Shown: positions 5,375-39,537, counted from the first letter of the stretch. The stretch is DNA of 64,000 nucleotides from Kiritimatiellia bacterium (GCA_017558005.1 JAFYWN010000007.1:9374-73373); one strand, 5' to 3'. Translations and numbers: made by a program. Notes: a model not told the origin generated them from the sequence alone.

Positions 5375-5874
5375 TCCTCCTCTCTACGCACACTAAAAGT
5401 GTAGCAAAATGGAGACAAGTAGTCAACTCTACCGACCCAGGTAAGCGAAAATTTCGCGGTAGGTAGGCGAAATTTTCGCTTGAAAATCGGCGACTTTGGT
5501 CACCCAATTTCGCTGACTTTGCTCAGGAATTTCGCTGATATTGCTCGCCAATTTCGCTGATATTGACCCGAAATTGTTTTAGCTTTCCCCAAAAAAGCTG
5601 CTACTTGTTGATAACTTTTCTAGCACCTCTACCCCAAAATTTCGCAAGGAAGCGACTGTAGCGGAGTTAATCTTGCCCTATTTTTGATTTATCTCTTTAT
5701 TTTTCAATGAGTTATGACCTTTTAACGAGATTGAGCAAAAAGGCCAAAAATCCGACAATCCGCCGAAGATTTTTCAAAAAACTGCGTCGAAAAAAGTGAA
5801 TTGTTGATAACTTGTTGATAACTCAAAAAAGTTTTCAACAGCCGAAAAATCGATAAAAAAGTACAAAAAGTGAC
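5375..5874. repeat. Copy A of a ~500-bp non-coding repeat element, with an inverted partner at 39046-39537.
   Basis: Reverse-complement alignment to 39046-39537 gives roughly 80-90% identity by eye. Three 22-bp direct iterons (AATTTCGCTGA at 5506, 5528 and 5550) are present. TGTTGATAA occurs at 5606-5614, 5802-5810 and 5813-5821. There are near-palindromes GCGAAAATTTCGC and an AT-rich tract (5680-5720). Confidence 0.8.
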
Positions 5875-6268
5875 AAACCTGCGTAAGGAAAATTTGAAGG
5901 GATTGAAGGGATAAAAGCGATAAGAGCGATAGAAGGGATGATGTGGGGACGCCGCCGCCCCACTCCTCTGTGAGAGCGCAGCTTATCGTAGCCCCTGCCC
6001 ACCGCGGCAGAGGTGAGTCCTGCACGCTACGCATCCTAGCGGATGCTTTTACTGGTGCTCTCGAGGAGGAAAGAGAGGAAGCTCCGAGGTGCGGCGGAGG
6101 CCGAAGAGCGCTTCGCAGGGGGGGGTCACGGGGAGGTGTGGCTGCGCGTAATGTACGGATAACACCGCTTGATTTTTTCGCATGGACGCATTTTTTGAAT
6201 GCGCAGTTATTGGCAAGTTTGGTATGATATTTATGTTTAATTTATTACAATTAAAGTAAGGAACGATT

Positions 6269-7441
6269 ATGAAGTTGCTGAATCAAACTGTTACAGCCAT
6301 CGCCCCTTCTGCGACACTTGCAATTACAAGCAAGGCTGCCGAACTTAAAGCCCAGGGTATCCAGGTCTGCGCATTTGCCGCAGGTGAGCCCGATTTTAAC
6401 ACTCCCGATTGCATTAAAAACGCTTGTGAAGCGGCATTAGACGAACACAAAACGCGTTATGTCGCCGCTGCTGGTTTGCCGGAATTACGTACGGCACTCA
6501 GCGAAAAGCTCCAGGCCGAAAATGGTGTGAGCTACGAACCCTCTCAGATTTTGGTTGCCAATGGTGGTAAACATGCCTTAGCACAGGTCTTCCAGACGTT
6601 GATTAATCCGGGTGACGAGGTGATCATTCCTGCGCCATTCTGGTTGTCCTACCCCGAAATGGTGCGCGTGGCGGGTGGTGTGCCGGTCTTTGTGAAGACT
6701 TCGGTTGAAGACGGCTTCTTGATGAGCCCCGAACAACTCGAGGCCGCCATCACGCCCAAGACTGTGGCCGTGGTGATGAATTCTCCCTCCAACCCCACCG
6801 GCATGATGTACACGCCCGAACAGCTCCGTGCAATCGGCGAAGTGGCGATCAAGCATGATATTTGGGTGGTCTCCGACGAAATTTACGAAAAGATGGTCTA
6901 TGGCGGCGTGGAACAGGCTTCCATTGCAGCCTTTGGTCCTGAATTTTATGACCACACCATCACGGTGAACGGCTTCTCCAAGACCTTCGCAATGACCGGT
7001 TGGCGCCTGGGTTATGCCGCAGGTCCAAAGCCCTTTATGAAGGCGCTTTTTGCTCTCCAGAGCCACTTAGCATCCGCACCGAACACCTTTGCACAGTGGG
7101 GCGCAATTGCCGCACTGAAGGAAGCAGGTCCTGATGTTGCAACGATGGTGAAGGCATTCGCTGAACGTCGCGAACGCATCTACGCCTTGATGTCGGCGAT
7201 TCCTGGCGTAAAGTGCCCGAAGCCGGAAGGCGCTTTCTATGTCTTCCCTGACATCTCCTCCTTCGGCATGACCTCGCTTGAGTTCGCTCAGCGCCTCTTG
7301 GAAGAACACCATGTGGCCGTGGTGCCTGGTATTGCATTCGGCGACGACACCTGCGTCCGCTTGAGCTATGCCTGCTCGATGGACAACATTGAAGAAGGTA
7401 TGCGTCGCTTCACGGCATTCTGTGCTTCTTTGAAGAAATAA
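6269..7441 (+). CDS. Class-I (fold type I) aminotransferase, aspartate aminotransferase-like.
   Basis: The motifs NSPSNPTGMMYT and FSKTFAMTGWRLGY (the PLP-lysine region) are typical of AspC/AAT-like enzymes. An AAGGA RBS lies 7 nt upstream. Confidence 0.85.
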   Translation: MKLLNQTVTAIAPSATLAITSKAAELKAQGIQVCAFAAGEPDFNTPDCIKNACEAALDEHKTRYVAAAGLPELRTALSEKLQAENGVSYEPSQILVANGGKHALAQVFQTLINPGDEVIIPAPFWLSYPEMVRVAGGVPVFVKTSVEDGFLMSPEQLEAAITPKTVAVVMNSPSNPTGMMYTPEQLRAIGEVAIKHDIWVVSDEIYEKMVYGGVEQASIAAFGPEFYDHTITVNGFSKTFAMTGWRLGYAAGPKPFMKALFALQSHLASAPNTFAQWGAIAALKEAGPDVATMVKAFAERRERIYALMSAIPGVKCPKPEGAFYVFPDISSFGMTSLEFAQRLLEEHHVAVVPGIAFGDDTCVRLSYACSMDNIEEGMRRFTAFCASLKK

Positions 7442-7457
7442 TCTCGGAGAAATCCAA

Positions 7458-9608
7458 ATGTACTGTCACAAGTTTTTCCGCATGGCGCGCACCATGCAGG
7501 CGGCTCTGACTTGCGGTGCAGACGTCGAACACTTAAAAGAGCTCGGCCGTCGTTATTGGTTAGTACTCTCCTGCCCTGTTGCCGCAGTCGGCGATAATGT
7601 TGCGGCACCGTTGCTTGATACTGACCATGATGGACGCGTCCAGATTCCTGAAGTCTTGGCAGCGATTGAGTGGTTGAAGCCACGCTTGAGCTCCTTTGAT
7701 GTGCTCTTCACCGCAGCGGAAGGACTTGTGGCAGATGACATTTGTGCGGATACCGCAGAAGGTGCAGTCCTACGAAAGCTCTTTGATTCGCTTTCTGGCG
7801 GTAAGATGCTCTCCTCTGCCGATCTAACGACTGCAATTGGCGCCTTCCAAGCGGGCGCGGCGAATGGCGATGGCGTCATTCCGGTAAGTGCAGTAGATAC
7901 GAAATTTGCGCCGTTGGCCGAAGCGATGCTCGCAGTTACTGGTGGTACAGCGGGATGCGACGGTAAGAACGGAATCGCGGCAAAGGACGTTGAAGCCTTT
8001 CGTGCCGCACGTGAAGCCTACTTAAAGTGGACAGCCGACAAACCTGAAATCGGCGAATCGCTCAATGGCATTGCGCCAGCAGATGCGGTGGGATGCGTTG
8101 AACGCTTAACCGCCAAGGTTGAAGCCTTCTTTGCGGCAGGTGAATTGCTCCGTTACAATCCGGCTGCACAGGAAACCTTTGCCTTGCCGACGACCCCTGA
8201 GGCGCTCGTTGAGGCGCCCCTTGCCAAGCTCACCCCTGAAGCAACCGCGATCCCTGTCTCACAAGGCGTCAACCCTGCGTGGGCTAAGAATTTGGCAATG
8301 TTGGGTAAGCTCTTGGATGAAGAGTGCATTACCCCTGTGCTTTGGGAAAAAGCACAGGCGCTCGTCGCCCCATATAGCGCATGGGCCACCGCCAAGCCAC
8401 AGGGTGCAGACTGTTTCGCGGGCATGGACGAACACCTCTTCGCCATGGCAGGCGAGCCTGCTGTCCTTAAGACCATTACGGACGCCATTGATGCAGATAG
8501 CGCCAATGCTCCGCTCGCAGCGGCCTTTGAAGACCTTAAGAAGTTGACAGCGCTACGTACAGACCTATTACCCTTCTTGCAGAACTTCGTCAACGTTGAA
8601 GCGCTCTATCCGCCGAAGGCAAAGCCCCTCTTCTTGACGGGTTCCCTCTACATGGATGAACGAGCTTGCTCGCTCTGTTTCCCGATTGAAAAAGCTGCCG
8701 CCGCGCATGCTGCCGCTGCAACCGCTTCAAAGTGTTGCCTCGTTTACTGCACGCTGACGCGTCCTGCCGACAAGGCTACGCGCACCATTTTGGCTGTCTT
8801 CACCACCGGCACGGTCAACAACCTCACGGTCGGCAAGCGCGGTCTCTTCTTTGACCTTGAAGGCAAAACGTGGGAAGCGGTCGTTTGCCATGTCGTGCCC
8901 AACGTCATTAGCCTAACCGAGGCCTTCTTCACCCCGTGGCGTAAGGTGGGCGAGGCCATTACGGGCACCTTGCACAAGTTTATTGCAAGCAAAAACGATG
9001 TAGCCACGGCGGCATTAACGACAAAGGCCACCGCTACCACAACCGCCGTCACCTCTGGAACTGCCACACCTGCCGCAGCTCCTAATAACAGTGCGATGAT
9101 GGCCTCCGTCGCCACCCTTGGCATTGCACTCTCGTTTGTGGCATCCGCCGTGGCAGGGATTGCCTCTGCCTTGACGCAGACACCACTCTGGAAGACGGCC
9201 CTGGTCGTGCTCGGATTCATCTGCATTGTTTCGGTGCCGAACGTCATTCTCACGTGGATCAAGTTGAGAGCACGCGACCTCGCGCCCATCTTAAATGCAT
9301 CTGACTGGGCAATTAACCGTACGATTGGCTTCACGGCTGGGCTTGGCAGGTTCTTTACGCAGCGCGCATCATACGTTGGTAAGCGCTTGATTTGCCCGCC
9401 GATGAAAACGGCTCATCCTGTTCGCAACACCCTCTTCATTGTGGTCATTGTAGCCGCAGCGCTGACTGCCGCTTGGTGGTACTGCTGCCCAACTTCGCCT
9501 CGCAATAAGGTTGAGCCCCAAGCAGAAGCGCCTGCCGAAACGACTACAACTGCCCCCGCAACTGAAGTGGCTCCGGCGGCTACAGCAGTCGCCACGGAGG
9601 CCCAGTAA
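7458..9608 (+). CDS. Hypothetical Ala-rich protein with three C-terminal TM helices and a Thr/Ala/Pro-rich tail.
   Basis: It is a long ORF (716 aa) with a GGAG RBS 8 nt upstream. The C-terminus has three hydrophobic helices followed by a low-complexity APAETTTTAPATEVAPAATAVATEAQ tail. I recognise no family. Confidence 0.6.
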   Translation: MYCHKFFRMARTMQAALTCGADVEHLKELGRRYWLVLSCPVAAVGDNVAAPLLDTDHDGRVQIPEVLAAIEWLKPRLSSFDVLFTAAEGLVADDICADTAEGAVLRKLFDSLSGGKMLSSADLTTAIGAFQAGAANGDGVIPVSAVDTKFAPLAEAMLAVTGGTAGCDGKNGIAAKDVEAFRAAREAYLKWTADKPEIGESLNGIAPADAVGCVERLTAKVEAFFAAGELLRYNPAAQETFALPTTPEALVEAPLAKLTPEATAIPVSQGVNPAWAKNLAMLGKLLDEECITPVLWEKAQALVAPYSAWATAKPQGADCFAGMDEHLFAMAGEPAVLKTITDAIDADSANAPLAAAFEDLKKLTALRTDLLPFLQNFVNVEALYPPKAKPLFLTGSLYMDERACSLCFPIEKAAAAHAAAATASKCCLVYCTLTRPADKATRTILAVFTTGTVNNLTVGKRGLFFDLEGKTWEAVVCHVVPNVISLTEAFFTPWRKVGEAITGTLHKFIASKNDVATAALTTKATATTTAVTSGTATPAAAPNNSAMMASVATLGIALSFVASAVAGIASALTQTPLWKTALVVLGFICIVSVPNVILTWIKLRARDLAPILNASDWAINRTIGFTAGLGRFFTQRASYVGKRLICPPMKTAHPVRNTLFIVVIVAAALTAAWWYCCPTSPRNKVEPQAEAPAETTTTAPATEVAPAATAVATEAQ

Positions 9609-10490
9609 ATGTCTACCACCGTCACGCCTTTTTTGGGTTCTGAACACCCGCCCGTCGCAAAGACGGAAGCACGGTTTCACGTTATTCCTGTACCGATGGA
9701 ACTCTCTGTCTCCTACGGATCAGGAGCGGCTGAAGGGCCCTCAGCCATTCTGAACGCCTCCGATCAATTGGAAGCGTATGAAGCAGGTGAATTTCCCTGC
9801 GATGGCGGCATTTACACCACAGCGCCTGTTCAACCCGCAGAGGCGGAGCGTAGTAACCCCGAAGCGTGGTTGGACGCAATCGAAGCGGCCGTGGGTGAAG
9901 CATTGGATTGTGGCGCGAAGCCGGTGATGTTGGGGGGTGAGCACACGGTTACCTTGGGTGCTATTCGTGCATTTAAAGCACGTGGCGAAGAAATCGGAAT
10001 TGTTCACTTTGATGCACATGCCGACCTGAGAGACACATATGAGGGAACCAAATTCTCCCATGCATGCGTCTTACGGCGCTGCCATGAGCTCGGCTTCCCG
10101 ATCGTTCAGTTCGCCACACGTGCCTATTGTAAGGAAGAAGCCGACTACCGTGCCGCCCATCCGAAGACCCTCTTCGCAATGGACGCAGAGAAGTTGGCAC
10201 TCAAAGGGCCGCCCTCCCCGATTCTTCCCAAACATTTTCCCAAGCGAATCTATGTCACCTTTGACGTAGATGGATTAGATCCGTCTGTAATGCCAAGCAC
10301 GGGCACACCTGTGCCGGGTGGATTGCTTTGGTACTCAGCACTCTTTATGTTGCGCGAAATTGCGGTAGACCACGAAATTGTGGGATGCGATGTAAATGAA
10401 TTGGCGCCGATTCCGGGATTACATCACGCCGACTTTACCGCCGCAAAGCTGACCCAACGTTTGATGGGATTGATGCAACCCAACTCCTAA
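9609..10490 (+). CDS. Agmatinase/arginase-family ureohydrolase.
   Basis: The Mn-binding motifs GGEHTVT, HFDAHADL and DVDGLDPSVMPSTGTPVPGGL are present. Its ATG abuts the previous stop. Confidence 0.8.
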   Translation: MSTTVTPFLGSEHPPVAKTEARFHVIPVPMELSVSYGSGAAEGPSAILNASDQLEAYEAGEFPCDGGIYTTAPVQPAEAERSNPEAWLDAIEAAVGEALDCGAKPVMLGGEHTVTLGAIRAFKARGEEIGIVHFDAHADLRDTYEGTKFSHACVLRRCHELGFPIVQFATRAYCKEEADYRAAHPKTLFAMDAEKLALKGPPSPILPKHFPKRIYVTFDVDGLDPSVMPSTGTPVPGGLLWYSALFMLREIAVDHEIVGCDVNELAPIPGLHHADFTAAKLTQRLMGLMQPNS

Positions 10491-10516
10491 GCACCTCGTT
10501 TCACCCGAATCAACCG

Positions 10517-11518
10517 ATGACCGTAGTCTCGCCTACTCCTCAAAACACCCCGCCCCCTGAAGACATCCTCAAGGCGGCCTTACTCCGTTTTGAGGGGGCA
10601 AATCTCTCCTTTGTGGATGGGGTGTGGGTAAACGAATCGGTCCGCGGGCGTGACTTAAAGTACTATGTCTTTGACTGGGATGACAATGTCCTCTGCATGC
10701 CGACCCGCATCCATATGGAACGCCGCACCGCTTCTGGAGAATGGGTGCCCCATCTCTGCTCGACGGCGGCCTACAGCATCATTCGTAAAGACACCGACCA
10801 CTATCGTTATCCACAAAACCAACGTGAAATGGCCTTTGTGGAATTTCAAGACGAATTCACCCATTTGGGCGGTGGCAATTTCATCAAAGATTTAGATTTA
10901 GCTTTAGACGAGATTCTTTCCGGACGAAAAGCGCCGCCGCCGAGTTTTGCCACCTTTCGCAAAACCCTCATCGAAGGGCGCCTCTTTGCGATTGTAACGG
11001 CACGTGGTCACCACGAAAAGACCCTCCGCGCGGGCGTTCAACGCTTCATTGAACGTGCACTGACGCCCGTAGAGCGCGAAGTCATGTTGATCAACCTGCG
11101 TGGGTACGACTACTGCTTTGACCACGTACAGTCCTTCCCATCGCAAACTGAAGTATTGCAACACTACCTCTCCCTCTGTCACTACCACGCCATTACCTCT
11201 CCCGACTTTAAAGCGCGCATCGCAGATGAGGCGCCAGAGGCACAGGCGAGTGAAGAGCTCAAGCAATTTGCCATTCAAGACTTCATCGATCACTTAGTCT
11301 CCATCTTGGATAAAACAGGTATGGCGGCTTTGCGATTGCCAATCTCTATTGGCTTCTCGGACGACGACCGTCACAACGTTGCGGCGGTGCGCGACTACAT
11401 TGAAAATGTCCTTATTCGGCGCTTCCCCACCGTCAAATTCTGCATTTACGACACCTCCGATGGCGCTGGCGCTCACAAAATGATGATTTCGGGCCAGATG
11501 GAATTGGCATTGGAGTAA
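10517..11518 (+). CDS. Hypothetical protein (333 aa), possibly HAD-like.
   Basis: It is a long ORF in an operon context. YVFDWDDNVL is reminiscent of a HAD motif I but not canonical. Confidence 0.55.
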   Translation: MTVVSPTPQNTPPPEDILKAALLRFEGANLSFVDGVWVNESVRGRDLKYYVFDWDDNVLCMPTRIHMERRTASGEWVPHLCSTAAYSIIRKDTDHYRYPQNQREMAFVEFQDEFTHLGGGNFIKDLDLALDEILSGRKAPPPSFATFRKTLIEGRLFAIVTARGHHEKTLRAGVQRFIERALTPVEREVMLINLRGYDYCFDHVQSFPSQTEVLQHYLSLCHYHAITSPDFKARIADEAPEAQASEELKQFAIQDFIDHLVSILDKTGMAALRLPISIGFSDDDRHNVAAVRDYIENVLIRRFPTVKFCIYDTSDGAGAHKMMISGQMELALE

Positions 11519-11524
11519 AATACG

Positions 11525-12550
11525 ATGTCGGCCTCTTCCTCCATTGGTGTAGCGTTTTCTGGTGGCGTGGACTCTGCCGTCTGCGTGCGACTCTTGCAAG
11601 AACAAGGCTATGACGTTACGGCGTGGCATATGTTAACTTGCCGACCCGAAGTGGATGAAGCCACCGTCTCCCTCGCGCAAGCACTCAATGTCCCCCTCAA
11701 GGTGATAGATTTACACGAGACCTTTGAGCGCGAAGTCGTAGCACCCTTCTTCAATGCCTATGCTAATGGATTTACGCCCAATCCCTGTTTGGCGTGCAAT
11801 GCACGGCTTAAATTTGGACGATTACGTGAAGCGATTGCGGGCCCAATGGCGACAGGCCACTATGTCCGCATTGAACCCGATCCGCAAAGTGGCGAAGTAA
11901 CCCTTCGAAGTGGGATTGATCCTGCTAAAGATCAAAGTTACTTCCTCTATGATATCCCCAAAGAAGTCCTACAATCGGTTCACTTTCCCTTAGGAAACAT
12001 GACCCGCGCGCAGGTGGTGGAACTCGCCAAAGCATGGCAATTACCCATCCCCGAAAAACGACTTGCTGCGGGGAGTCAAGACATCTGCTTCTTGCCAGAA
12101 GGTGACTATCGCCCAGAATTGCGCCGTCGTCACCCCGAAACCGCACGCCCAGGTAATGTTTTGGACATGAATGGCAAGGTGATTGGTCGCCACGAAGGCC
12201 TCGCCAATGTAACCCGTGGCCAACGCAAAGGACTCGGGATTGCAACGGGTGGGCGCGCCTTTGCCGTTGGGTTTGACCGACAGGCAAATACACTCACCTT
12301 GGGTCCCAAGGAAGCACTTGAGGTCACCTCTTTTAAAGTGGAACGGCTGAATTGGATGGTGACACCAGTCTTCCCCCTACACTGCCTCGCCGTTACGCGC
12401 TATCACCATCGCCCCGTCGCCTGCCAAGTCCTTGAAGATGGCACTGTTCTGCCAGAGCACCCCCTTACCCTCGTCACGCCAGGTCAAGCCTGCGTCTTCT
12501 ATCGCGATGAATGGGTGCTCGGCGGCGGTCTCATTCAAGCGTTAAACTAA
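11525..12550 (+). CDS. mnmA: tRNA-specific 2-thiouridylase MnmA.
   Basis: It has a PP-loop (GVAFSGGVDSAV) and conserved MnmA blocks (NPCLACN, DQSYFL). Confidence 0.9.
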   Translation: MSASSSIGVAFSGGVDSAVCVRLLQEQGYDVTAWHMLTCRPEVDEATVSLAQALNVPLKVIDLHETFEREVVAPFFNAYANGFTPNPCLACNARLKFGRLREAIAGPMATGHYVRIEPDPQSGEVTLRSGIDPAKDQSYFLYDIPKEVLQSVHFPLGNMTRAQVVELAKAWQLPIPEKRLAAGSQDICFLPEGDYRPELRRRHPETARPGNVLDMNGKVIGRHEGLANVTRGQRKGLGIATGGRAFAVGFDRQANTLTLGPKEALEVTSFKVERLNWMVTPVFPLHCLAVTRYHHRPVACQVLEDGTVLPEHPLTLVTPGQACVFYRDEWVLGGGLIQALN

Positions 12551-12574
12551 GGCTACTATTTCCGAAAGGCTTTT

Positions 12575-13285
12575 ATGAAAAATTCCTTTCGTCAACTTAC
12601 GATTAATCTCCCTTGGCTCATTGATGCACTCCTATCACTCGGCGGTGCGATACTCTTTTTCGCCCTTTTCTTTTGGGGCATTGCAGGGTCCAAACTCAAT
12701 TTAAAACTCCTCCTCTTTTCAATATTTGGGCTATTGGTGCTCGGTGTTTTTTCCACCTTCCTTATTCGCGACATCATTGCATGGATGCGAGCAATGCGAC
12801 GCCCGCTAACGCCTCACGTCCTCCCGCTTACATTGCCGAGCGACCACCTCAAAGAACGCCTAACGCAACTCCGTGAACTGTTGCGTTCACTCAACATCGC
12901 AGAAGATGCCCCCATGCAGGTGTACTTAACCGATAAGCGTGCCTACTGGACAAATGATTTTACGATAGACCTTCACTTCCTTAAACACAAATGGTGTGCA
13001 GGCGTTAGTCTCACAGCTGGCGGGACACTTTTACCCCTACAACTCAAGCGAATTGCCACTCTCCTCCCTTGCAAACTCCCCGAACGCTTTCTTACCTCCC
13101 AACTAACCTCATGCATTCTCTCGTGGGAAAAGAACCAACTTCACATCTTCCCTGCAGATGTCGCACCCAATCTCTTAAGCGAATTAATTCCGGGACTGCT
13201 ATCAGAAAAGCAAGCCGATTTTGAAGAATGGCTTAAAGCTTACAAACAAACGTTGATTGAAGACAGAGAAACGGAAGCGCAGTAA
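12575..13285 (+). CDS. Hypothetical membrane protein (236 aa).
   Basis: It has two N-terminal TM helices. I see no recognisable family. Confidence 0.5.
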   Translation: MKNSFRQLTINLPWLIDALLSLGGAILFFALFFWGIAGSKLNLKLLLFSIFGLLVLGVFSTFLIRDIIAWMRAMRRPLTPHVLPLTLPSDHLKERLTQLRELLRSLNIAEDAPMQVYLTDKRAYWTNDFTIDLHFLKHKWCAGVSLTAGGTLLPLQLKRIATLLPCKLPERFLTSQLTSCILSWEKNQLHIFPADVAPNLLSELIPGLLSEKQADFEEWLKAYKQTLIEDRETEAQ

Positions 13286-13297
13286 CGCTTCCGTTTC
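13262..13297 (+). terminator. Hairpin overlapping the stop codon of the 12575-13285 gene.
   Basis: A 12-bp perfect stem (GAAACGGAAGCG/CGCTTCCGTTTC) has a 6-nt loop that contains the TAA stop. A weak T-tract (GTTTCTGTT) follows. Confidence 0.35.
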
Positions 13298-13346
13298 TGT
13301 TAAAAGGTAGACTCAGGCGACCGTGTCGCCGCACTAATCTCAGTAA

Positions 13347-14438: not shown

Positions 14439-14440
14439 CT

Positions 14441-14481: not shown

Positions 14482-14514
14482 CACTGTTATCGGTCGTTAG
14501 CCGATTAAGCCCAA

Positions 14515-23568: not shown

Positions 23569-23573
23569 TCGAA

Positions 23574-31089: not shown

Positions 31090-31096
31090 TTCAAAC

Positions 31097-31561
31097 TCAC
31101 AGACGGACTTTCAAGACGACCTTACGCACCTTGTCGCAACCCGGCACGCGGTGACCCGGTGCATGAGCATCCTGCGGGTAGAGCACAAAGAAGGTTCCCT
31201 TGGAGAACGGCACCAGCGCACCTTCACCCTTCACGAAGCCGATGTCGGATTCAGCATTGTAGGGCTTGAGTTCTTCAAGGTCTGCCGTGAGCGGACGATA
31301 GCCAATGGCTTCACAACCTTCGAAGAGATACTGGATATCAACATAGTCACGATGATATTCCAAAGAGCAATCTTCCGGTGCGCGGGTGTTGTACTCCTGA
31401 ACGTTGGCGTAGAGCAATTCCGTGCCGTCTGCGGCCTGTTCAATCACATGATGCCCCGTAGGAAGGGTGGCATTTGCGGGGTCATTCAACCATGCAAAGG
31501 CCTTATCAAAAAGCGGACCCAAGTTCAACTTTCCCGCATTTTCGAGTGTATCGATAATCAT
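31097..31561 (-). CDS. YhcH/YjgK/YiaL family protein (DUF386).
   Basis: Its size and sequence resemble this beta-sandwich family. Start chosen at MIIDTLEN with an AAGGAT RBS. Confidence 0.55.
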   Translation of the reverse strand: MIIDTLENAGKLNLGPLFDKAFAWLNDPANATLPTGHHVIEQAADGTELLYANVQEYNTRAPEDCSLEYHRDYVDIQYLFEGCEAIGYRPLTADLEELKPYNAESDIGFVKGEGALVPFSKGTFFVLYPQDAHAPGHRVPGCDKVRKVVLKVRL

Positions 31562-31633
31562 TTGTGTATCCTTTCTTATGATGTGTGAAATCAAATTGCG
31601 TGAGGGTTAGGCAGTCTAATGACGCACCAAACC

Positions 31634-31876
31634 TCAATTAAAGGGCTCACGTAAGAGCGTGCCATCGGTTTCGGAGGCCTTAATCTTCTCCACGCGTTGT
31701 TGCACTTCGGAGAGCTTGGCATTACAAAATGCCACTAATTTGCGACCTTCTTCAAAAGCATCCATCATCTGATCCAACGGCAACGTACCACTTTCCATCG
31801 CCGTAATCAGTTCATCCAAACGTGCAGATGCCGCTTCAAAGGTAGTGGGCTCTTTTTTGGCTTTTGCAGTACTCAT
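31634..31876 (-). CDS. xseB: Exodeoxyribonuclease VII small subunit.
   Basis: It is 80 aa with the XseB-like helical hairpin (FEAASARLDELITAMESGTLPLDQMMDAFEEG). Confidence 0.8.
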   Translation of the reverse strand: MSTAKAKKEPTTFEAASARLDELITAMESGTLPLDQMMDAFEEGRKLVAFCNAKLSEVQQRVEKIKASETDGTLLREPFN

Positions 31877-31883
31877 GGCGCTT

Positions 31884-34172
31884 TTACTCCGTCACGTTGT
31901 AACGTTCTTTTAATTCCTGACGCAAACGCTCCGCTTCGCGGGTACGACCCTCCGCTGTGAGCAATGCAATCGCTTCACGAAATGCGGGAGTGACGCGTTC
32001 CTTGTCGTCAAAGAAGATAATCAGGCTCATATTGGCGCGAAGGGCTTCCGCATTCTGCCCCAGCGCCTTACATGCCGCTGCCAAACCGCCATATGCCTTG
32101 GCGCGATTCAAGCGTCCCTCGGCAGTGTCCATGTCGGCTGCAGAGATTGCGCGCGTAAAGGCAGCTTTCGCCTTTTCACAATCGCCTTCAGCCAAGCGCA
32201 ATTCACCCAAACCAACCGCCGCTTCGGCGTCATAGGCAGTCTTTTCGGCGCTGATATTCAACGCCGCTTCGTAGGCCGCTAAGGCCGTTGCGGCCTGACC
32301 GCGCCCTTGCGCCGCCTTACCAATCAACGTCTGTGCGAGCACTTTGTCAGCCGCCGTTGCCGAAGGCTTTGCCGCTAATACGCGTGCCGCCGCTTCTGCT
32401 TCTGCCCACTCTGCGCGCTCCAAACGGAAATCTGCGAGCCAACGCAAATAGGTCGGCGCCAAGGTCTCTGCGTCCTTCATGCCCAAAAGCGGTTGCAACA
32501 AAGCCGCCGCTTCATCATTCTGTCCGAGGGAGTGCAGTGCTTGCGCGCGACGCATCGCCGCATCAATGCGGCGGGCATGACCCAGCGGTGTGCGATTCTC
32601 ATCGCCATTTACCGCGAGTGCCTTTGCTAAATGATTTGCCGCAGCTTGGAAATCCTGCGCATTGAAGAAGATTAAACCACGCAAATAGGCCGCTTCTGCC
32701 ACTGCCTTCCCCTGCGGGAAACGGGTCAGATATTCATCCAGGGCCGCCGTTGCGCCCGCCACATCTTGTTCACTTAAAGCATCACGTGCTCGCAAAAGTA
32801 AGGCATCGGGCACCACCATCGCATCACCCGAAGCTAATGCTAAAGCAAGTGCCTGCTCTGCGCGATCTTTCATCTCTGCCTGACGGAATGCACAGGCTGC
32901 CGCAAATGCCGAACGTCCCGCGCAGGGCATCGTGGGCCACGTCTCAGCTGTGCGCAACCAGATTTCACCCGCCGCCGCATAATTCTTTTCCTTATGCTCT
33001 AATGCGCCAAGACGATACGAGGCTTCTGCCGCCTGTTCTGCAGGAGCGTGTTCCATCAACCAAGTCGCCGCGGCACGTGTGTGAACGACATTCGCCGTTT
33101 GGAGTGCCGCATCCAGACGATACCACATCAAAACCGAATAGGCCTTTTCGGGCAGAATCGTTGCGACGCGTGCATAGGCTTTGAGGAATGCCGCAGGATC
33201 GCCAGCGCGTGCACGCAGGGTCAACATCGCCTCTGCGGCAGAGGGTGCCTGCGGGTCATTGGGGAATTCGCTTAAGAGACGTTCATATGCCGTAATCGCA
33301 CCGATTTCATCGCCGAGGGCCGTGAAGACTGCGCCTTCTAAGACCAAGCGACCTGGCGTAGCCGCCGCATTCACGACCTTATCTGCAGAGAGCCAAATGC
33401 GCGCTTCATCGGGACGATTCGCACGTAACGCCGCCCAAGAGGCGGGCAACAATAAGGTGTGTTTCGCCAAGAGCTTCTCGCCGACTTCTTTTGCAAAGCT
33501 GGCCGCTTCGGGATAGCGTGCCGAACGATAGGCACCCGAAAATGCAGCTAAAGCCACCTCTTTTTTGCGGTCAGGATTGGTTTCTGCGGCAAGAATTTCG
33601 CGGTACAACTTTTCCGCTTCTTCATGACGGCTTGCCGTCTTTGCGATTAAGGTCGCCTGAGTCAAGCGCGCATGGGCCGCATACTTTCCCTTTTGGGAGG
33701 CGATGTATTTGTACAAAGCCTCCGCATCGCGAGGACGATTCACCGCCTCATAGCAAACCGCCAGGCGATACTGAGCCGCTTCACGGATATCCTTTGAGTC
33801 GCGATTGACCGAAAGGGTGTCTAAAATCGGCAAAGCCTGAGCCGCTTCATTATTTTCAAGCAACGAAATGGCTAAGCGTAACTTCGCCGCCGCGGCGCGT
33901 TCGCCCTTGGCCAATTCGGAGACCTTTTTGTAAAGCGCACGAGCCTCTTTGTCACGCCCCAAGCGTTCATAGCACTCTGCAAGGTTGAAGCGCACCTCAT
34001 TCTGCAAGTCATCAGAAGCCGAGCCGGGCGCCTTCAAAAAGGCTTCATACTCTGTGGCCGCCTGTTCTGACAAGCCTCGACGGAAGAGACCTTCGGCAAA
34101 GGTTAAGCGTTCATCTGCGGCGTGCAACATCGCCACGCAAAAACAACACAATAAACAACAAATTAGACGCAT
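31884..34172 (-). CDS. Secreted TPR-repeat protein (about 760 aa).
   Basis: It carries many Ala/Leu-rich TPR-like repeats. Start chosen at MRLICCLLCCFCVAMLHAADERL (a signal peptide). The upstream ORF extension lacks coding character. Confidence 0.7.
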   Translation of the reverse strand: MRLICCLLCCFCVAMLHAADERLTFAEGLFRRGLSEQAATEYEAFLKAPGSASDDLQNEVRFNLAECYERLGRDKEARALYKKVSELAKGERAAAAKLRLAISLLENNEAAQALPILDTLSVNRDSKDIREAAQYRLAVCYEAVNRPRDAEALYKYIASQKGKYAAHARLTQATLIAKTASRHEEAEKLYREILAAETNPDRKKEVALAAFSGAYRSARYPEAASFAKEVGEKLLAKHTLLLPASWAALRANRPDEARIWLSADKVVNAAATPGRLVLEGAVFTALGDEIGAITAYERLLSEFPNDPQAPSAAEAMLTLRARAGDPAAFLKAYARVATILPEKAYSVLMWYRLDAALQTANVVHTRAAATWLMEHAPAEQAAEASYRLGALEHKEKNYAAAGEIWLRTAETWPTMPCAGRSAFAAACAFRQAEMKDRAEQALALALASGDAMVVPDALLLRARDALSEQDVAGATAALDEYLTRFPQGKAVAEAAYLRGLIFFNAQDFQAAANHLAKALAVNGDENRTPLGHARRIDAAMRRAQALHSLGQNDEAAALLQPLLGMKDAETLAPTYLRWLADFRLERAEWAEAEAAARVLAAKPSATAADKVLAQTLIGKAAQGRGQAATALAAYEAALNISAEKTAYDAEAAVGLGELRLAEGDCEKAKAAFTRAISAADMDTAEGRLNRAKAYGGLAAACKALGQNAEALRANMSLIIFFDDKERVTPAFREAIALLTAEGRTREAERLRQELKERYNVTE

Positions 34173-34191
34173 AGTATTCCAATAAACAACA

Positions 34192-34803
34192 TTAGCCGAT
34201 GATGACTCGACGTCCCTCAATGCGCAAACGCCCCGCTGCGAGATGACGGAGGGCTTCTGGGAAGGCGATGTGCTCCTGCACTTGAATGCGCGCATGGAGC
34301 GTCTCAGGGGTGTCCCCCTCCTCCACAGGCACGCACTTCTGCACAATAATCGGTCCGCTATCGGTGCCCGCATCCACAAAGTGTACCGTGCATCCCGCCA
34401 CCTTTGTGCCATAATCAAGTGCTTGCTTCCAAGAGTGCAAGCCTGGGAAGGCTGGCAAAAGTGCAGGATGGATGTTTAAGACGCGATTGGGGAAGGCAGC
34501 CAAAAGGCCTGGCTTCACAATACGCATAAAGCCTGCGAGCACCACGGTGTCTGCGCCTGCTTCCTTCATAATGCGAATGTATTCTTGTTCGGCTTCGCCA
34601 TCCAGCTTCGTCTTAAACGGTGCGCAGGAGACATAGCGTCCCGGCAAACCGTGCTTGGCCGCGCGCTCAAGAATCTTCGCATCTGGCACGTCTGCCAAGA
34701 CGCACACAATTTCTGCATCCAAAGTTCCAGCTTCAATCGCGTCCACGATGGACTGCATATTGCTTCCAGAACCAGAACCCAATACTGCAAGCTTCAATTT
34801 CAC
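34192..34803 (-). CDS. purN: Phosphoribosylglycinamide formyltransferase PurN.
   Basis: The motifs LAVLGSGSGSNMQ and NIHPALLP are present. A GTG start has a GGAGG RBS 7 nt upstream. The start overlaps the cmk stop (GTGA). Confidence 0.85.
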   Translation of the reverse strand: MKLKLAVLGSGSGSNMQSIVDAIEAGTLDAEIVCVLADVPDAKILERAAKHGLPGRYVSCAPFKTKLDGEAEQEYIRIMKEAGADTVVLAGFMRIVKPGLLAAFPNRVLNIHPALLPAFPGLHSWKQALDYGTKVAGCTVHFVDAGTDSGPIIVQKCVPVEEGDTPETLHARIQVQEHIAFPEALRHLAAGRLRIEGRRVIIG

Positions 34804-35519
34804 TTTGTTTCCTCCGTGGTTGCAGCCGGGGTCTTCCAATCTTCAGGCAGTGCATCAATCACGGTCTGCACCACTTGTTCCAACGTCAAATAGGTCGAAT
34901 CAATCGCCACCACGCCATCTGCCTTACGCAGCGGAGCGCATGCACGCGAAGAGTCAATGCGGTCACGTGCCAAAAGCGATTCCTTCACCGCTTCCACGTC
35001 CTGATTGGCGATACCCTTCTGCACTTCTTCGAGTTGGCGACGGGCCGCACGCACCGCCGGATCTGCTTCGAGGTAGAAACGTGCAGGCGAGTCTGGGAAG
35101 ACGGCCGTGGTAATATCGCGACCTTCGATAATCAGATTGCCAAAACGGGTGAGGCTGCGAAGTCCTGCGGTAATCTTTTCACGCACAGCAGGCACCGTTG
35201 CCACAGGAGAGGCATGGGCATTAATGCGCGGTTCACGCAGTTCCTTGTCGGGGCGAATTCCACCCACTTCATAGACCACGCGACCATCTTCTGCCTTACA
35301 GTCGATTGCCAAATCCTTGGCCAAAGCGGCCACGGCTTCTGGATTAGCCGTATCCACGCCCTGCTCCAAGCACTGCCACGTCACAATGCGATACAGAGCA
35401 CCAGAGTCAACGTGAAGGTAACCCAAACGGCGGCCCACCTCCTTGGATACGGAGGATTTACCGGCACCACTGGGGCCATCAATAGCGATTACGCGTGCGG
35501 AAGGATTTTCTGTTGTCAT
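34800..35519 (-). CDS. cmk: Cytidylate kinase domain, in frame with ftsH with no stop between.
   Basis: The P-loop IAIDGPSGAGKSS and a cmk-like remainder are present. It is preceded in the same frame by ...[12 protein letters not shown] with no intervening stop. Confidence 0.8.
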   Translation of the reverse strand: MTTENPSARVIAIDGPSGAGKSSVSKEVGRRLGYLHVDSGALYRIVTWQCLEQGVDTANPEAVAALAKDLAIDCKAEDGRVVYEVGGIRPDKELREPRINAHASPVATVPAVREKITAGLRSLTRFGNLIIEGRDITTAVFPDSPARFYLEADPAVRAARRQLEEVQKGIANQDVEAVKESLLARDRIDSSRACAPLRKADGVVAIDSTYLTLEQVVQTVIDALPEDWKTPAATTEETK

Positions 35520-37529
35520 AGTCTGCTGCTCCTCTTCTGCCGAAAGACGCTTCACTTCAGGCTTGATTCCCGTTTGAATCAAACGCTCCACGTCGCGACC
35601 GTCGGCGGTTTCCACTTCTAAAAGATACTCAACTAAAAGTTCAAGTTTGTCACGATTCGCGCCAATGATTTCCTCACCACGGCGATATGCTGCTTCCACG
35701 AGCTGCGTCACTTCTTCATCAATTGCGCGCGCAGTGGCTTCGGAGTGATCCTGTTTGCGACCAATTTCTCGACCGAGATAGATCTGCTCTTCGTTATCCC
35801 CGAAGGCTTGGAAGCCAAATCGTTCGCTCATGCCATAGGCGCAGACCATCTGACGAGCCAGGCGGGTCGCCATCTTAATGTCTTGCGATGCACCAGTCGA
35901 GCGTTCGCCCGTAAAATACTTTTCGGCGATACGCCCGGCCGTCAAGACCACGAGCATATCCTTCATTTCATTCTCAGTGCGATTCAAAACGTCTCGCTCA
36001 GGCAGGGTCATCGTTGCACCCAGTGCGCGACCACGCGGGATGATTGTCACTTTGTGCAAGGGTTCCGTGTGCTCCAAAAGCACCTGCGCCAAGGCATGAC
36101 CACCTTCATGCCACGCCGTAATGCGGCGATCCTTATCGGCCATCGTGTGCGAACGACGTTCACGGCCCCACAGGACCTTGTCGCGCGCCTCTTCTAAGTC
36201 GGCATGAGTCACCTTTGTGCGACGAGCACGTGCCGCCAATAGTGCCGCTTCATTCAGCAAGTTGGCGAGGTCTGCACCAGAAAAACCTGGCGTACCGCGC
36301 GCAACGCGTTCCAAATCCACGTCTTCGCCCAACTTCACCTTATCGGCGTGCACCTTCAAAATCGCCACACGCCCCTCGACCGTGGGCAAGTCAACGACAA
36401 TCTGGCGGTCGAAACGGCCCGGGCGCGTCAATGCGGGGTCAAGCACGTCCACACGGTTGGTCGCTGCCATGACAATCACGCCACTATTGCCCTCAAAGCC
36501 ATCCATCTCCACGAGCATCGCATTCAACGTCTGTTCGCGTTCGTCATGCCCACCGCCGATGCCGGTAAAGCGCGTACGGCCAATCGCATCAATTTCGTCA
36601 ATGAAGAGGATACACGGCGCATTCTTCTTGGCCTGATCAAACATGTCGCGCACGCGGCTCGCGCCGACGCCCACAAACATTTCCACAAAGTCAGAACCCG
36701 AAATGGAGAAGAAAGGCACCTCTGCTTCACCTGCGATTGCCTTCGCGAGCAACGTCTTACCCGTGCCAGGAGGCCCCATCAAGAGAACACCTTTCGGCAC
36801 CTTACCACCCACCGCTTCAAAGCGCGCAGGCTCCTTCAAGAAATCAACAATTTCCTGCACCTCTTCCTTCGCCTCATCCACGCCAGCGACGTCCTTGAAG
36901 CGAATCTTCGCATCTTCCTTGTTCATCATCTTGGCGCGTGATTTACCAAAGGCAAAGGGGCCATCATTGCCACCGCCCATTCTGCGCATGAAGAGCACGT
37001 AAAAGAGCACAAAGAAGAGAATGATTGGCAGAAGCGAAACCATAATCGGTCCCCACCAACTGCGATTATTCTCTTGAATCGTGCGCACACCAGCCTGCGC
37101 CAAACGCGTCTCGAGCCCTTCAGTGTCAAGCAGATTCAGCTTAAAGGATTCACCCTGTGCCTTCGGGTCAACTTGCGCGCCGTCCGCAGTAGGCTTGGGC
37201 AACCACTGCCCTTGCAAAAAGGTCTCATCTTCTCCTTCTCGGATTAACTTCACCTCTGCAAGTGCCGCATTTCCCTTCACGCCCCCTGCTTCATCTTTGA
37301 CGACACCCGCCTCAACGCGTTGCCAGAAATCCAACTGCGAAAGCGGGGCCTCCGCTTTACTCAGGTTTAATCCCTCGCCACCGCCATTGAACAAGGCAAT
37401 CAAAGAGAAGATAAAGACCGCCAAAAGAACCCACACCATCACAGGTGCGCGCCAATGGGGTTTCTTATCCTTGTTATCGGGGGTATTCTCTTTTTTTCCG
37501 GGATTCGGCTTCTTTTCGTCTTTCGACAT
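35520..37529 (-). CDS. ftsH: ATP-dependent zinc metalloprotease FtsH, fused read-through into cmk.
   Basis: It has two N-terminal TM segments, AAA+ motifs (GPPGTGKT, the DEIDA Walker B, the second region of homology) and the HEGGH zinc motif. Start at MSKDEKK has a GAGGAG RBS. Confidence 0.9.
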
Positions 37530-37530
37530 C

Positions 37531-38466
37531 TTAGCTCCTCTGAACTTCGCGTCCCTTTTCCTGCGAGACGAGAATTTCAAACATTTGATCATTTTGCTTC
37601 TTACAGGCACCCAAAATCAACCCCACGCCATAGGAAAGCAAACCCGCCATGGCGAGGAAGCCGGAGAAGTTCAACGTCGGCTGACGCGGCACTTCGCCGA
37701 TCTTAAAGTATTCAATCAACACCGGCACAAACAATGCCATTGCGCAGAGCAATAACACCGTACCGACGACTCCAAAGAAGAACTCCGGACGATAAAAACG
37801 GAAGAGATTGAAAATCGTCTTCAGTACGCGAATACCATCGCTCACAGTGTTCAACTTCGAGACACTGCCCTCAGGACGATCGCGATACTGCACCGGCACT
37901 TCAATCAAGCTCATACGCTTATCAATCGTGTGCAGCGTCATCTCGGTTTCAATCTCAAAGCCCTGCGCCAAAACTGGGCAACTCTTCACGAAGAGACGGC
38001 TAAATGCACGATAACCCGTCATCACGTCATTCACACGCTGGCCCCACAAAAGGCGAATCAACGTGCAGACCAACGTATTCCCGAAATTATGTCCAGGGCG
38101 CTTATTCTCCTGCATGTACGTTGACGAGAGACGGTCACCATTGACCATATCCGCCTCGCCATCAAGGACAGGCTTAATCAACTTATGCACCTCATCTGCC
38201 GGATAAGTGTCATCAGAGTCCACCATCACATAGACATCTGCATCCACCTCCTGGAACATACGACGCACCACATGGCCCTTACCCTGTTGCGGCACGCGAC
38301 GAACGAATGCACCTGCAGCCTGAGCCAAGTCCGCAGACCCGTCAGAACTGTTATTGTCATAAACCCAAATATCCGCATCCGGCAACTCCGCGCGAAAATC
38401 CCGCACCACCTTCTCAATCGTCAAGGCTTCATTGTAACAAGGCAACAATACGGCGACCTTTGGCAT
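37531..38466 (-). CDS. GT2-family glycosyltransferase (dolichyl-phosphate mannosyltransferase-like).
   Basis: The N-terminal blocks VAVLLPCYNE and VYDNNSSDGS, the DSDD motif and C-terminal TM helices are present. An AGGAGG RBS precedes MPKVAV. Confidence 0.8.
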   Translation of the reverse strand: MPKVAVLLPCYNEALTIEKVVRDFRAELPDADIWVYDNNSSDGSADLAQAAGAFVRRVPQQGKGHVVRRMFQEVDADVYVMVDSDDTYPADEVHKLIKPVLDGEADMVNGDRLSSTYMQENKRPGHNFGNTLVCTLIRLLWGQRVNDVMTGYRAFSRLFVKSCPVLAQGFEIETEMTLHTIDKRMSLIEVPVQYRDRPEGSVSKLNTVSDGIRVLKTIFNLFRFYRPEFFFGVVGTVLLLCAMALFVPVLIEYFKIGEVPRQPTLNFSGFLAMAGLLSYGVGLILGACKKQNDQMFEILVSQEKGREVQRS

Positions 38467-38638
38467 AGTCTTCCTCCTTATAAAATTCCGCCCAAAATTA
38501 TACCACATTTCCCCCAACTCAAATATTTATTTTAATTAATGTATGTAAAAGATTCAGCCAAACTCGCCTCAAAATCCCCTGCGAGTGCTGGGCACAGGTG
38601 CCCGACAGTGGCCAATCGACAGTTGGCGCCTCTGGCGC

Positions 38639-38707
38639 TGGTTGACGGCGCTTCGCACCGTGGTTAAGCGGCAGAGCCGCTGGTTGACGAGCTCGCTCGT
38701 GGTTAAT
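38639..38707 (+). repeat. Four direct TGGTTRA repeats spaced about 20 bp apart, each preceded by a short GC hairpin.
   Basis: TGGTTGAC occurs at 38639, TGGTTAAG at 38661, TGGTTGAC at 38681 and TGGTTAAT at 38700. The array lies 170-240 bp upstream of the GT2/ftsH operon start. Confidence 0.4.
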
Positions 38708-39045
38708 GCCTAACGGCATGGATGGTGGCTTTGCCACAGGACTGCCAGTGTGGGGGTCTCCACGAGTCGCACAGTCATGCACGCTGCGTCGCACGGGCAC
38801 ATATCCGTGCTCCGCCAGCGTGCGCTTGTCTCTTCTTACTCCTCTCTTCTCACTTCTTACTACAAGGGCGCAGCCGCTTAACTGGGGAATATGCGCTCGA
38901 GCACGAAGTGCTGAGAAACAGGCAACTCAAGTGAGCTTAGCGAACGAAACTTAGAACTTGTGGCGTAGCCACCCCGTGGACTCTAAAATTCGTATAAATT
39001 CGTAAAATTCGTGGTTAAAATCCCGTGCGCGAAAAGTTCACTTTT

Positions 39046-39537
39046 TCCATTTTTTCATCGATTTTTCGCTTGTTGAAAACTTTTTTTAGTTATCAACAAG
39101 TTATCAACAATTCACATTTCACGACGCAGTTTTTTGAAATTTTATGGCAGATCAACGGATTTTCGGCGTTTTTGCTCAACCTTGTTAAAAATGCATAACT
39201 CATTGAGTAGTATGGAGATAAAGCAAAAATAGAGCAAAATTAACTCCGCTACAGTCGCTTCCTTGCGAAATTTTGGACCCAGAGTGATAGAAAAGTTATC
39301 AACAAGTAGCAGCTTTTTGGGAGAAAGCTAAAGCAATTCCGGGTCAATATCAGCGAAATTGGTGAGCAGTATCAGCGAAATTGATGAGCAATATCAGCGA
39401 TTTCGGGTGACCAAAATCAGCGATTTTCAGGCGGAATTTTCGCTTACTTATCGCGAAATTTTCGCTTACCTGGTTCGGTAGAGTTGACTACTTGGCTCCG
39501 GTTTGCTACACTTTTAATGTGTGTAGAGAGAAGAGAT
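39046..39537. repeat. Copy B of the ~500-bp repeat element, inverted relative to copy A.
   Basis: It is the reverse complement of 5375-5874. Iterons TCAGCGAAATT occur at 39350, 39372, 39394 and 39417. TTATCAACA occurs at 39088, 39099 and 39296. Imperfect 32-50-bp direct repeats lie 216 bp outside each end (38795-38826 and 39754-39786). Confidence 0.8.

Follow-up and report, generated by a model that had tools for sequence, protein, structure and literature searches.

A dispersed family of origin-like repeats with a predicted outward promoter in a gut Lentisphaerota genome

The 64,000-nucleotide stretch of Kiritimatiellia bacterium DNA analysed here in its entirety (GCA_017558005.1, JAFYWN010000007.1:9374-73373; hereafter the window) contains two inverted copies, designated A and B, of a non-coding element that carries DnaA-box motifs, an AT-rich stretch, iterons and a predicted outward promoter. 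The element belongs to a family whose copies number at least about 50 and are spread over the genome of this gut member of the Lentisphaerota, and A and B are almost certainly ordinary members of that dispersed family, and neither origins nor the ends of an inversion. The explanation we favour for the family, taken as a package, is descent from a replicon-like origin-plus-promoter module, a role for each copy as a site at which DnaA and an iteron-binding protein would bind the DNA, and the addition of a promoter to the surroundings of each copy; we put its probability at roughly 0.55. The initial annotation had offered three readings of the pair, namely a duplicated origin, the ends of an invertible 33-kb segment, and a family of Rep/DnaA-bound regulatory elements, and it is the last of these that fits best: the family is observed, whereas the binding would be a prediction from the motifs.

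Copies A and B form a real inverted repeat of about 500 nt, recovered by repeat search, by alignment of the pair and by a profile hidden Markov model (HMM) of the family, which has no matches in the window other than these two. The copies align in three gapless inverted arms (5377-5626 with 39284-39533 at 88% identity, 5634-5780 with 39130-39276 at 83%, and 5772-5873 with 39038-39139 at 90%), and a MAFFT alignment of the two contains only one indel, of 1 nt. Identity as reverse complements is about 84-88%, with 83 differences over 519 aligned HMM columns, and the longest exact runs common to both reach about 36 nt. The cores delimited by the family HMM (Table 1) are slightly longer at the 3′ end than the repeat as it was first drawn. 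Both copies occur in one and the same arrangement in the three assemblies that span them, namely the window itself, ERZ27256904 k141_587727 and ERZ28633324 scaffold_81, and the agreement of the latter two means that the repeat is not an artefact of assembly, which disposes of the misassembly that the initial annotation had named as a threat to its case. Both copies lie in long non-coding gaps flanked by divergent genes, just as first described: the gap around A (5150-6268) has yccF-ddl-ftsQ-ftsA-ftsZ on its minus-strand side and an aminotransferase gene on its plus-strand side, and that around B (38467-40227) has genes for a family 2 glycosyltransferase (GT2) and FtsH on the minus strand and a C5 methylase gene on the plus strand.

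The evidence for a dispersed family comes from two independent scans. An exact scan for the 22-mer that spans the tandem DnaA boxes, in one genome per species, returned at least 88 stretches, and among the matches listed 25 come from a single metagenome-assembled genome (MAG), Candidatus Spyradenecus sp. GCA_045605345.1 (JAZUPT01, Lentisphaerota). The whole element is present in 20 of these 25 stretches, with 73-81% identity to A and end-to-end matches to the 530-position profile HMM. As the GT2 protein is identical over 311 aa on contig JAZUPT010000015.1 of this MAG (locus L097), the MAG and the window represent the same species. A scan with an unrelated conserved motif gave at least 37 further copies, all in the metagenome assembly JAEIGA01, one 54-kb contig of which holds four. 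Pairwise identity over 56 copies averages 75% and ranges from 61 to 93%, and on the contigs seen there is approximately one copy per 13-80 kb. These copy counts are lower bounds from draft assemblies, and some copies are orthologues between the two assemblies. Many dispersed copies had been named at the outset as the observation that would count against a special pair or a duplicated origin, and with at least 20 copies in one MAG and at least 37 in one assembly that idea is not supported.

The genes beside the copies, called in the fetched loci by longest-open-reading-frame heuristics, point away from the element in 32 of 41 cases on the promoter side and in 31 of 41 on the other side, so that the copies sit mainly in divergent promoter regions. 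The switch of coding strand that had been seen at A and B is thus present, but its interpretation as an origin signature falls, as it reflects this family-wide siting between divergent genes. Most of the neighbours are core genes, among them asd, pfk, tyrS, gmk, icd, surA, psd, yebC, dnaB, prfA/B, rpoD, gap, argG and gltA together with those for fumarase and malic enzyme.

Copies are also retained over time. The copy A locus is filled in all nine strains retrieved (92-100% identity), and the copies beside pfk, gmk and tyrS are kept between lineages whose flanks are 87-96% identical, which indicates that the family is old and stable. Orthologous copies differ in blocks that match the alleles of other copies (HMM columns 248-258 in L139, for example), and in two orthologous pairs, L015 with L114 and L044 with L120, the iteron block has been replaced wholesale; such block-wise swaps point to gene conversion. 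Substitutions between orthologues avoid the columns conserved across the family (odds ratio 0.03-0.27, p down to 1e-29), although we do not rely on this test for purifying selection because block swaps by gene conversion give the same pattern. The region upstream of the GT2 gene, where B is situated, is a strain-variable hot spot that holds a defence island in the window, an RHS-core gene in L092, a Fic gene in L093 and another gene in L094. The element is missing there in L093, in which the whole upstream region is replaced, and the copies at this site in other strains are only 86-88% identical to B though the flank is about 97% identical. At one contig end upstream of GT2 (L096, positions 1-129, from ERZ28633324 scaffold_81) the 5′ end of the element is found in the opposite orientation to B, which suggests that the hot spot may be arranged in a further way, or else that the assembler made a join at the repeat.

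Read along its own promoter, the element presents its motifs in an order that is the same in every family copy: tandem DnaA boxes facing a degenerate box, an AT-rich stretch, a single DnaA box, three or four iterons of 22 bp, an inverted iteron and/or half-site palindromes, and a predicted sigma70 promoter directed outward. The positions of these parts in A and B are collected in Table 1.

Table 1. Parts of copies A and B, in window coordinates and on window strands; copy A, on the + strand, runs in the direction used for the family alignment
Feature	Position	Strand	Basis or remark
Copy A, repeat-family core, ~527 nt	5377-5903	+	nhmmer with family HMM, positions 3-528, score 505, E 2.6e-153
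Copy B, repeat-family core	39010-39534 (39014-39534 by one HMM placement)	-	nhmmer, HMM positions 2-523, score 475, E 4e-144
Predicted sigma70-type promoter, copy A, TTGACT-17 nt-TGc-TACACT	5398-5426	-	predicted transcription start site near 5391, towards yccF-ddl-ftsQAZ
Predicted outward promoter, copy B, TTGACT-17-TGc-TACACT	39484-39512	+	predicted transcription start site near 39519, towards methylase/defence island
ACACT-n3-AGTGT palindrome over -10 hexamer, operator-like	A 5390-5402; B 39508-39520 (one arm ACATT)		arms conserved, loop variable in family
Two inverted iteron half-site palindromes (GCGAAAATTTCGC, GCGAAATTTTCGC)	A 5443-5457 and 5467-5481; B 39431-39469		between promoter and iterons
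Inverted iteron arm, copy A, palindromic with first direct iteron	5482-5499		family-wide 16-bp helix
Three direct 22-bp iterons, copy A	5504-5575	+	cores AATTTCGCTGAyTTTG at 5506, 5528, 5550
Four iterons, 22/23-nt spacing, copy B	39339-39437	-	Tandem Repeats Finder (TRF), repeat search, alignment
Single DnaA box TTATCAACA	A 5606-5614; B 39296-39304	- in A	exact-box scan
Conserved block TTTCGCAAGGAAGCsrCTGTAGCGGAGTT	A 5640-5671; B ~39240-39271		>=95% conserved across copies
AT-rich stretch, 72-78% A+T, with conserved TTATCTCTTTATT	A 5677-5727; B ~39185-39235		A+T profile, alignment
Tandem boxes 2 x TTGTTGATAAC, 11-nt period, and facing degenerate box TTTTCAACA (5832-5840), copy A	5801-5840	-	
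Tandem DnaA boxes and facing degenerate box, copy B	39071-39110	+	exact-box scan
Variable 3′ appendage of copy A	5894-6060	+	9-nt purine-rich repeats (5894-5939), then G+C-rich hairpin module

The iterons proved to be as the initial annotation had them, three or four per copy with a period of 22 bp. TRF reports a period of 22 with 3.2-3.3 copies in A and 2.5 in B, and a repeat search resolves three in A and four in B at a spacing of 22-23 nt, with three to four in the family alignment; both copies therefore have the three or more direct repeats of 17-22 bp in helical phase by which plasmid replicons are recognised. The family iteron is CAATTTCGCCCATATTG and the version found in the window is CAATTTCGCTGATATTG. 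In alignment of the pair, the B iteron that matches the inverted arm of A reads as a direct copy. Across the family the inverted iteron and the first direct iteron can be drawn as a helix in which 87.8% of cells are paired and 17 cells have changed on both sides, a result reached in none of 500 shuffles, and controls in which the arms were slid give 34-54% paired. The palindromes of the form GCGAAA(A)TTTCGC noted at first were recovered by repeat search in both copies as GCGAAAATTTCGC and GCGAAATTTTCGC, and are confined to the subfamily that comprises L092 and L094 besides A and B. The inverted iteron arm and the half-site palindromes lie 20-75 bp upstream of the -35 hexamer and do not overlap the promoter hexamers, and iteron-related inverted repeats in the vicinity of the rep promoter are a further property by which plasmid replicons are recognised.

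Towards the other end of the element, the block ATTGTTGATAACTTT around the single DnaA box is invariant in 19 of 19 aligned copies, none of which was selected on that block. The AT-rich stretch first described is present but modest, with 70-78% A+T over approximately 40-80 nt in a genome of 52% G+C; it lies 100-200 bp from the iterons and no 13-mer-type repeats were identified within it. It includes a T.TCAAnnnnTTA motif that, judged by eye only, resembles the IHF consensus. In the alignment orientation AAAAACTGCGTCGAAAAA precedes the tandem boxes. The 5′ end of the family is sharp, as all copies begin at TCTTCTCTCyAC (a polypyrimidine, TCTTCTCTC) and the flanks upstream are unrelated, whereas the 3′ end is fuzzy and grades into variable 9-nt repeats and G+C-rich modules. 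The build is modular: two alternative modules occur on the 5′ side, and the 3′ end likewise takes one of two forms. In A, the 3′ module ends in a terminator-like hairpin (6031-6046 followed by TTTT), and G+C-rich hairpin modules of this kind are also found standing alone elsewhere in the genome. The promoter, IHF-like and terminator-like sites are consensus matches only.

In the predicted promoter, TTGACn, a spacer of exactly 17 nt and TACACT are found in 48 of the 50 copies with an intact 5′ end, and 47 of these 48 also have TG at -15/-14; subfamilies differ in their spacer sequence while the hexamers stay, and family homology stops about 15 nt past the predicted start site. Promoters native to the window are also of the extended -10 type (upstream of GT2 it reads TGGTATAAT, and in front of the aminotransferase gene TGGTATGAT). 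Promoter scans of A and B and inspection of the alignment gave no conserved second promoter, either at the 3′ end or facing inward. A near-consensus promoter with 11 of 12 matches is situated at 5254-5283 on the minus strand, between copy A and yccF, so that the promoter of the element would be a second, upstream promoter for the yccF-ddl-ftsQAZ side.

Each copy has, as first described, three TGTTGATAA DnaA boxes, two of them in tandem with an 11-nt period, and these are perfect in both A and B. The exact TGTTGATAA sequence occurs six times in the 64-kb window, in every case inside A or B (0.49 expected by chance; none of 100 shuffles reaches 6). Each copy thus contains a cluster of the boxes of its lineage, three perfect TTATCAACA boxes and one degenerate box. 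The cautious term DnaA-box-like can be made firmer, as the same TTATCAACA box and an identical tandem pair occur at dnaA-dnaN in the conspecific MAG. Here, at locus L029, the AT-rich gap of approximately 1.8 kb next to dnaN (1735-3496) has 13 boxes with no more than one mismatch from TTATCAACA, including two tandem pairs with the same flanks as in the element and an identical 25-mer at 2466-2491, and upstream of dnaA there are six more perfect boxes, with a tandem pair among them as well. By its sequence this region is a typical bipartite origin and the predicted oriC of the species, and TGTTGATAA is by the same reasoning the predicted DnaA box of this lineage. The same tandem-box 22-mer lies between dnaA and recF in Poribacteria. 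Within the family few blocks are as well conserved as the boxes, and this holds even for copies picked on a different motif, although the exact tandem 22-mer is lost in 16 of 37 copies picked by the independent motif. We considered whether the element might be a piece of oriC that was copied around, but nhmmer matches L029 to HMM positions 425-450 only, corresponding to the box pair, and with the likeness limited to this segment descent from an oriC fragment is not supported. Two other observations were made at this locus: the oriC gap has its own, different 22-nt iterons (AGTTTGTTACAAACTCAAATCC, approximately four copies, at L029 2905-3005), and a HIRAN-domain gene (L029 3496-4869) is inserted between dnaA and the dnaN-proximal box cluster.

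In the explanation that we favour, the family would be derived from an origin-plus-rep-promoter module that multiplied through the chromosome, and would now be a long-term resident with copies kept at orthologous loci and reshuffled by gene conversion. The copies would act at the DNA level as protein-binding platforms, with DnaA predicted to bind the boxes and an iteron-binding protein, which might be an initiator of the Rep type or a host factor descended from such an initiator, predicted to bind the iterons and palindromes. Each copy would also add a promoter to its intergenic region, usually between divergent housekeeping genes. The component of this package concerning descent from a plasmid replicon is one that we hold tentatively, at somewhat less than even odds.

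The analogy behind it is one of architecture only: the order of motifs resembles that of the control region of iteron-type theta replicons such as F oriS-repE, pSC101 and P1 oriR. The parts of pSC101, pPS10 and P1 come in the same order as those of the element. Like the element, iteron theta replicons have two DnaA boxes, AT-rich DNA and, in helical phase, three to five iterons each about 22 bp long, then inverted repeats made from iteron half-sites and a promoter reading away from the origin. F oriS consists of two DnaA boxes, an AT-rich region with a 13-mer and four iterons, followed by repE, the promoter of which has inverted repeats bound by RepE dimers (PMC13028717), while RK2 oriV has DnaA boxes, iterons and a DNA unwinding element (DUE), and pSC101 requires an IHF site (PMC4980987). 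The element is unlike these replicons in that it is chromosomal, is present in dozens of copies and not one per replicon, has an extra central DnaA box, places its boxes farther from the iterons, has a -10 palindrome that is not iteron-like, lacks a rep gene after the promoter (30 copies) and shows no sequence similarity to PLSDB plasmids. A parallel from another chromosome is offered by Vibrio cholerae, where plasmid-type initiator sites on the main chromosome (crtS and the RctB iterons/39-mers) are reported to control replication (PMC6212839, PMC3401445); in Vibrio one such site goes together with a known initiator and a second chromosome, in contrast to the dozens of sites here.

Several observations weigh against the explanation we favour. 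The 30 promoter-side neighbours scanned with Pfam and NCBIfam are housekeeping or cargo genes, with no Rep-like gene after the promoter in any of these copies. Blastn gave no match to the element in PLSDB plasmids or GenBank phages, and a scan of IMG/VR for a conserved motif gave 0 matches, so that it is the order of the motifs that carries the argument for plasmid descent, and such an order could have been assembled independently. The AT-rich part reaches only 70-78% A+T and the tandem boxes are about 230 bp from the iterons, farther than in model plasmids, and the iteron bears no relation to the palindrome that overlaps the -10 hexamer. With regard to the added promoter, yccF, the target of the copy A promoter, has a stronger promoter of its own (TTGACA-18-TATAGT), and where the flanking genes are co-directional the promoter faces the gene start in 6 cases versus 4, which is no signal. 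Finally, selection acting on the element's own spread could be what has kept the motifs conserved from copy to copy.

Among the competing explanations, the idea that replication of the chromosome, or of an integrated element, starts at A and/or B would account for the DnaA boxes, iterons and AT-rich stretch in both copies, for their location between divergent genes, and for the fact that B adjoins a low-G+C island with a local minimum of cumulative GC skew. We consider it very improbable, and the duplicated origin of the initial annotation fails for the same reasons. There are dozens of equivalent copies; the oriC of the species is predicted to be the dnaA-dnaN region with its 13 boxes; GC skew lacks an origin-type switch, being negative on both sides of A despite the strand switch and rising near B only across the foreign low-G+C island (40-50 kb) before it falls again beyond; and the 20 window genes scanned around A and B include neither dnaA nor dnaN nor any adjoining initiator gene. 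We also know of no bacterial chromosome with multiple origins. An invertible 33-kb segment, flipped by recombination between the inverted copies, would be favoured by their orientation, by an identity of about 85% and by the exact runs already mentioned. However, the segment has the same orientation in the three assemblies and is inverted in none, no invertase gene was found among the window genes scanned near A and B, and the pair are two of many copies that occur in all orientations; we regard this idea as scarcely tenable, and the 33 kb between A and B is ordinary chromosome. Large structured non-coding RNA genes, or an RNA leader or riboswitch, might be suggested by a long, conserved, non-coding and multi-copy sequence with one helix that shows compensatory changes and, in A, a terminator-like hairpin in the 3′ module, but this too seems most unlikely. 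Neither at the gathering threshold nor at E<=10 did Rfam searches with the window and with the region give a credible match; the only hits were at chance level (E>1), and a scan for tRNA and tmRNA found none. RNAalifold on 19 copies gave a weak consensus fold (-26 kcal/mol over 567 columns, covariation term -1.4) and no global fold, with covariation confined to the iteron palindrome; this palindrome is explained by inverted iteron copies that co-convert, since iteron variants move between copies and co-conversion can account for the symmetry without a requirement for base-pairing. In addition, the sole conserved promoter points out of the element. Inspection of the alignments showed no conserved open reading frame (ORF), and a small ORF of 29 codons in copy A (ATGAGTTATGAC...TGA) is frame-shifted in B and interrupted in other copies. 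As far as can be judged from these features the element acts as DNA, and probably not as RNA or protein.

The main rival is a selfish miniature mobile element similar to a miniature inverted-repeat transposable element (MITE), in which a transposase or recombinase acting in trans would bind the iterons and palindromes, the promoter and the DnaA boxes would be passengers or helpers of transposition, and the host would gain nothing. We consider this unlikely, although it is the most serious of the alternatives. In its favour, the family has many dispersed copies that share one sharply defined 5′ boundary, has a promoter directed outward at one end as do many insertion sequences, is modular at both ends, is found together with other small G+C-rich repeats, and lacks a copy upstream of GT2 in one strain; moreover, lineage-level selection for mobility would give the observed conservation of motifs. 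Families such as Correia/NEMIS, BIMEs/REPs and ERIC are dispersed, non-coding and modular, some have promoters or IHF sites, and they cluster with small repeats, in all of which general respects the element resembles them. It differs in being 3-10 times longer and in preferring divergent promoter regions and not the 3′ ends of genes, and to our knowledge iterons and DnaA boxes have not been described for any of these families. Neither terminal inverted repeats, for which no dedicated scan was made, nor target duplications were seen on inspection of the family alignments, and the 3′ boundary is fuzzy. No cognate transposase turned up in the 8-kb stretches around copies, where an IS1595 transposase beside L115 is isolated and unrelated, and the strains offer no clean empty site, as L093 has its whole region replaced. 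The copies are also old, with their mean identity of 75%, are kept at orthologous sites with flanks only 87% identical, and are found in core-gene promoter regions from which selfish insertions are normally purged. A related comparison is with putative mobile promoters, defined as sequences of 50-100 nt that are at least 80% identical and lie no more than 150 nt from a start codon (Matus-Garcia, Nijveen and van Passel 2012, PMC3488235). [quoted passage not shown] Blocks of at least 80% identity over 50-100 nt exist within the family, with the promoter end 58-860 nt from the next start codon and within 150 nt of it in only a minority of copies.

A different proposal is that the copies are chromosomal sites for titration or recycling of DnaA, comparable to datA, DARS or the Bacillus box clusters, that buffer free DnaA, with the iterons binding an accessory factor. 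This is compatible with the explanation that we favour and is central to the more speculative idea given below; as an account in its own right we think it rather less probable than a MITE-like element. It is consistent with the three perfect and one degenerate oriC-type boxes per copy, with a tandem pair and flanks identical to those of oriC, with at least 20 copies per genome, and with the conservation of the boxes described above. On the other hand, it leaves the iterons, palindromes and promoter unexplained, and has to accommodate the loss of the exact tandem 22-mer in the 16 independently picked copies. E. coli datA and DARS1/2 and the Bacillus subtilis DnaA-box clusters are unique sequences, without iterons or a built-in promoter. 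The element resembles them in having oriC-type boxes away from the origin, an intergenic location and possibly an IHF-like site, but its copies form a repeat family and carry both iterons and a promoter, whereas the known examples are single-copy loci. A search of the literature found nothing relevant on repeats that bear DnaA boxes or on repeats of Lentisphaerae.

The surroundings of the two copies have features of their own. Copy B is bracketed by direct copies, approximately 960 nt apart (38780-38826 and 39739-39786), of a G+C-rich module of about 47 nt that is internally palindromic (CACGCTGCG...GGGCACATATCC...CGCCAGCGTGCGCT), and a GGGGGCGACGCCGCCCCC...GCATCCTGACGGATGCTTTT module is present downstream of copy A at 5944-6060, so that several small REP-like repeat families pile up in the same long intergenic regions. 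Just downstream of the outward promoter of B, at 39552-39583, is a heptad repeat of TTCGGGG in 4.6 copies, which on the predicted transcript has four G-tracts (GGGG..GGG..GGG..GGGG) and could form a quadruplex; this flank module is also found beside copies L087 and L031. On the far side of B is the low-G+C (36-44%) defence island at 40228-49690, with genes for a C5 cytosine methylase, a 118-aa ORF, an AAA_5 protein that matches PADLOC PDC-M26A (McrB-like), a DUF2357 and PDDEXK_7 protein (McrC-like) and two HEC-07/NsnC-like proteins, followed by a DpdE/ZorD-like SNF2 helicase gene at 50079-53540 on the minus strand. Inside the McrB-like gene an 18-nt tandem repeat, TTCTGACGAGGAGACATC, runs in perfect phase for 5.8 copies with 96% matches (43038-43141); it translates into reiterations of an acidic hexapeptide, and its length might vary through slippage. 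On the near side, the ftsH gene (34800-37610, minus strand) encodes a protein of 909 aa in which FtsH (AAA and peptidase M41) is joined in frame to a C-terminal cytidylate kinase domain, and since the same 909-aa product is predicted in nine of nine strains retrieved the fusion is not a sequencing artefact.

What use the host might make of such a family is a matter for speculation. In the most far-reaching form, which we regard as improbable, the host would use a genome-wide array of at least 50 orphan plasmid-origin modules with approximately 150 high-affinity DnaA boxes and approximately 200 iterons. One possibility is that the array would be a replication-coupled sink that sets how much DnaA and how much of a domesticated Rep-like protein is free, coupling the expression of the flanking housekeeping genes to the cell cycle; another possibility is that it would serve as a standing 'incompatibility' decoy, so that when an iteron plasmid invades, its initiator is titrated or handcuffed, which would amount to anti-plasmid immunity encoded in repeats and not in proteins.

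Dispersed bacterial repeats are usually short palindromes or MITEs without recognisable internal logic. The present family stands out as a long repeat in which each copy has the full parts list of plasmid replication control, with boxes identical to those of the host oriC, and in which the copies are situated in core-gene promoter regions and retained across lineages. At a practical level, short-read assemblies of this gut species break at copies of the family, and tools for the prediction of origins could be misled by it. If it is merely selfish, then an origin-plus-promoter module can behave as a mobile repeat. If instead the copies bind DnaA and an iteron-binding protein, they would give the chromosome a new means of buffering its initiator, of linking housekeeping promoters to the cell cycle, or of keeping plasmids out.

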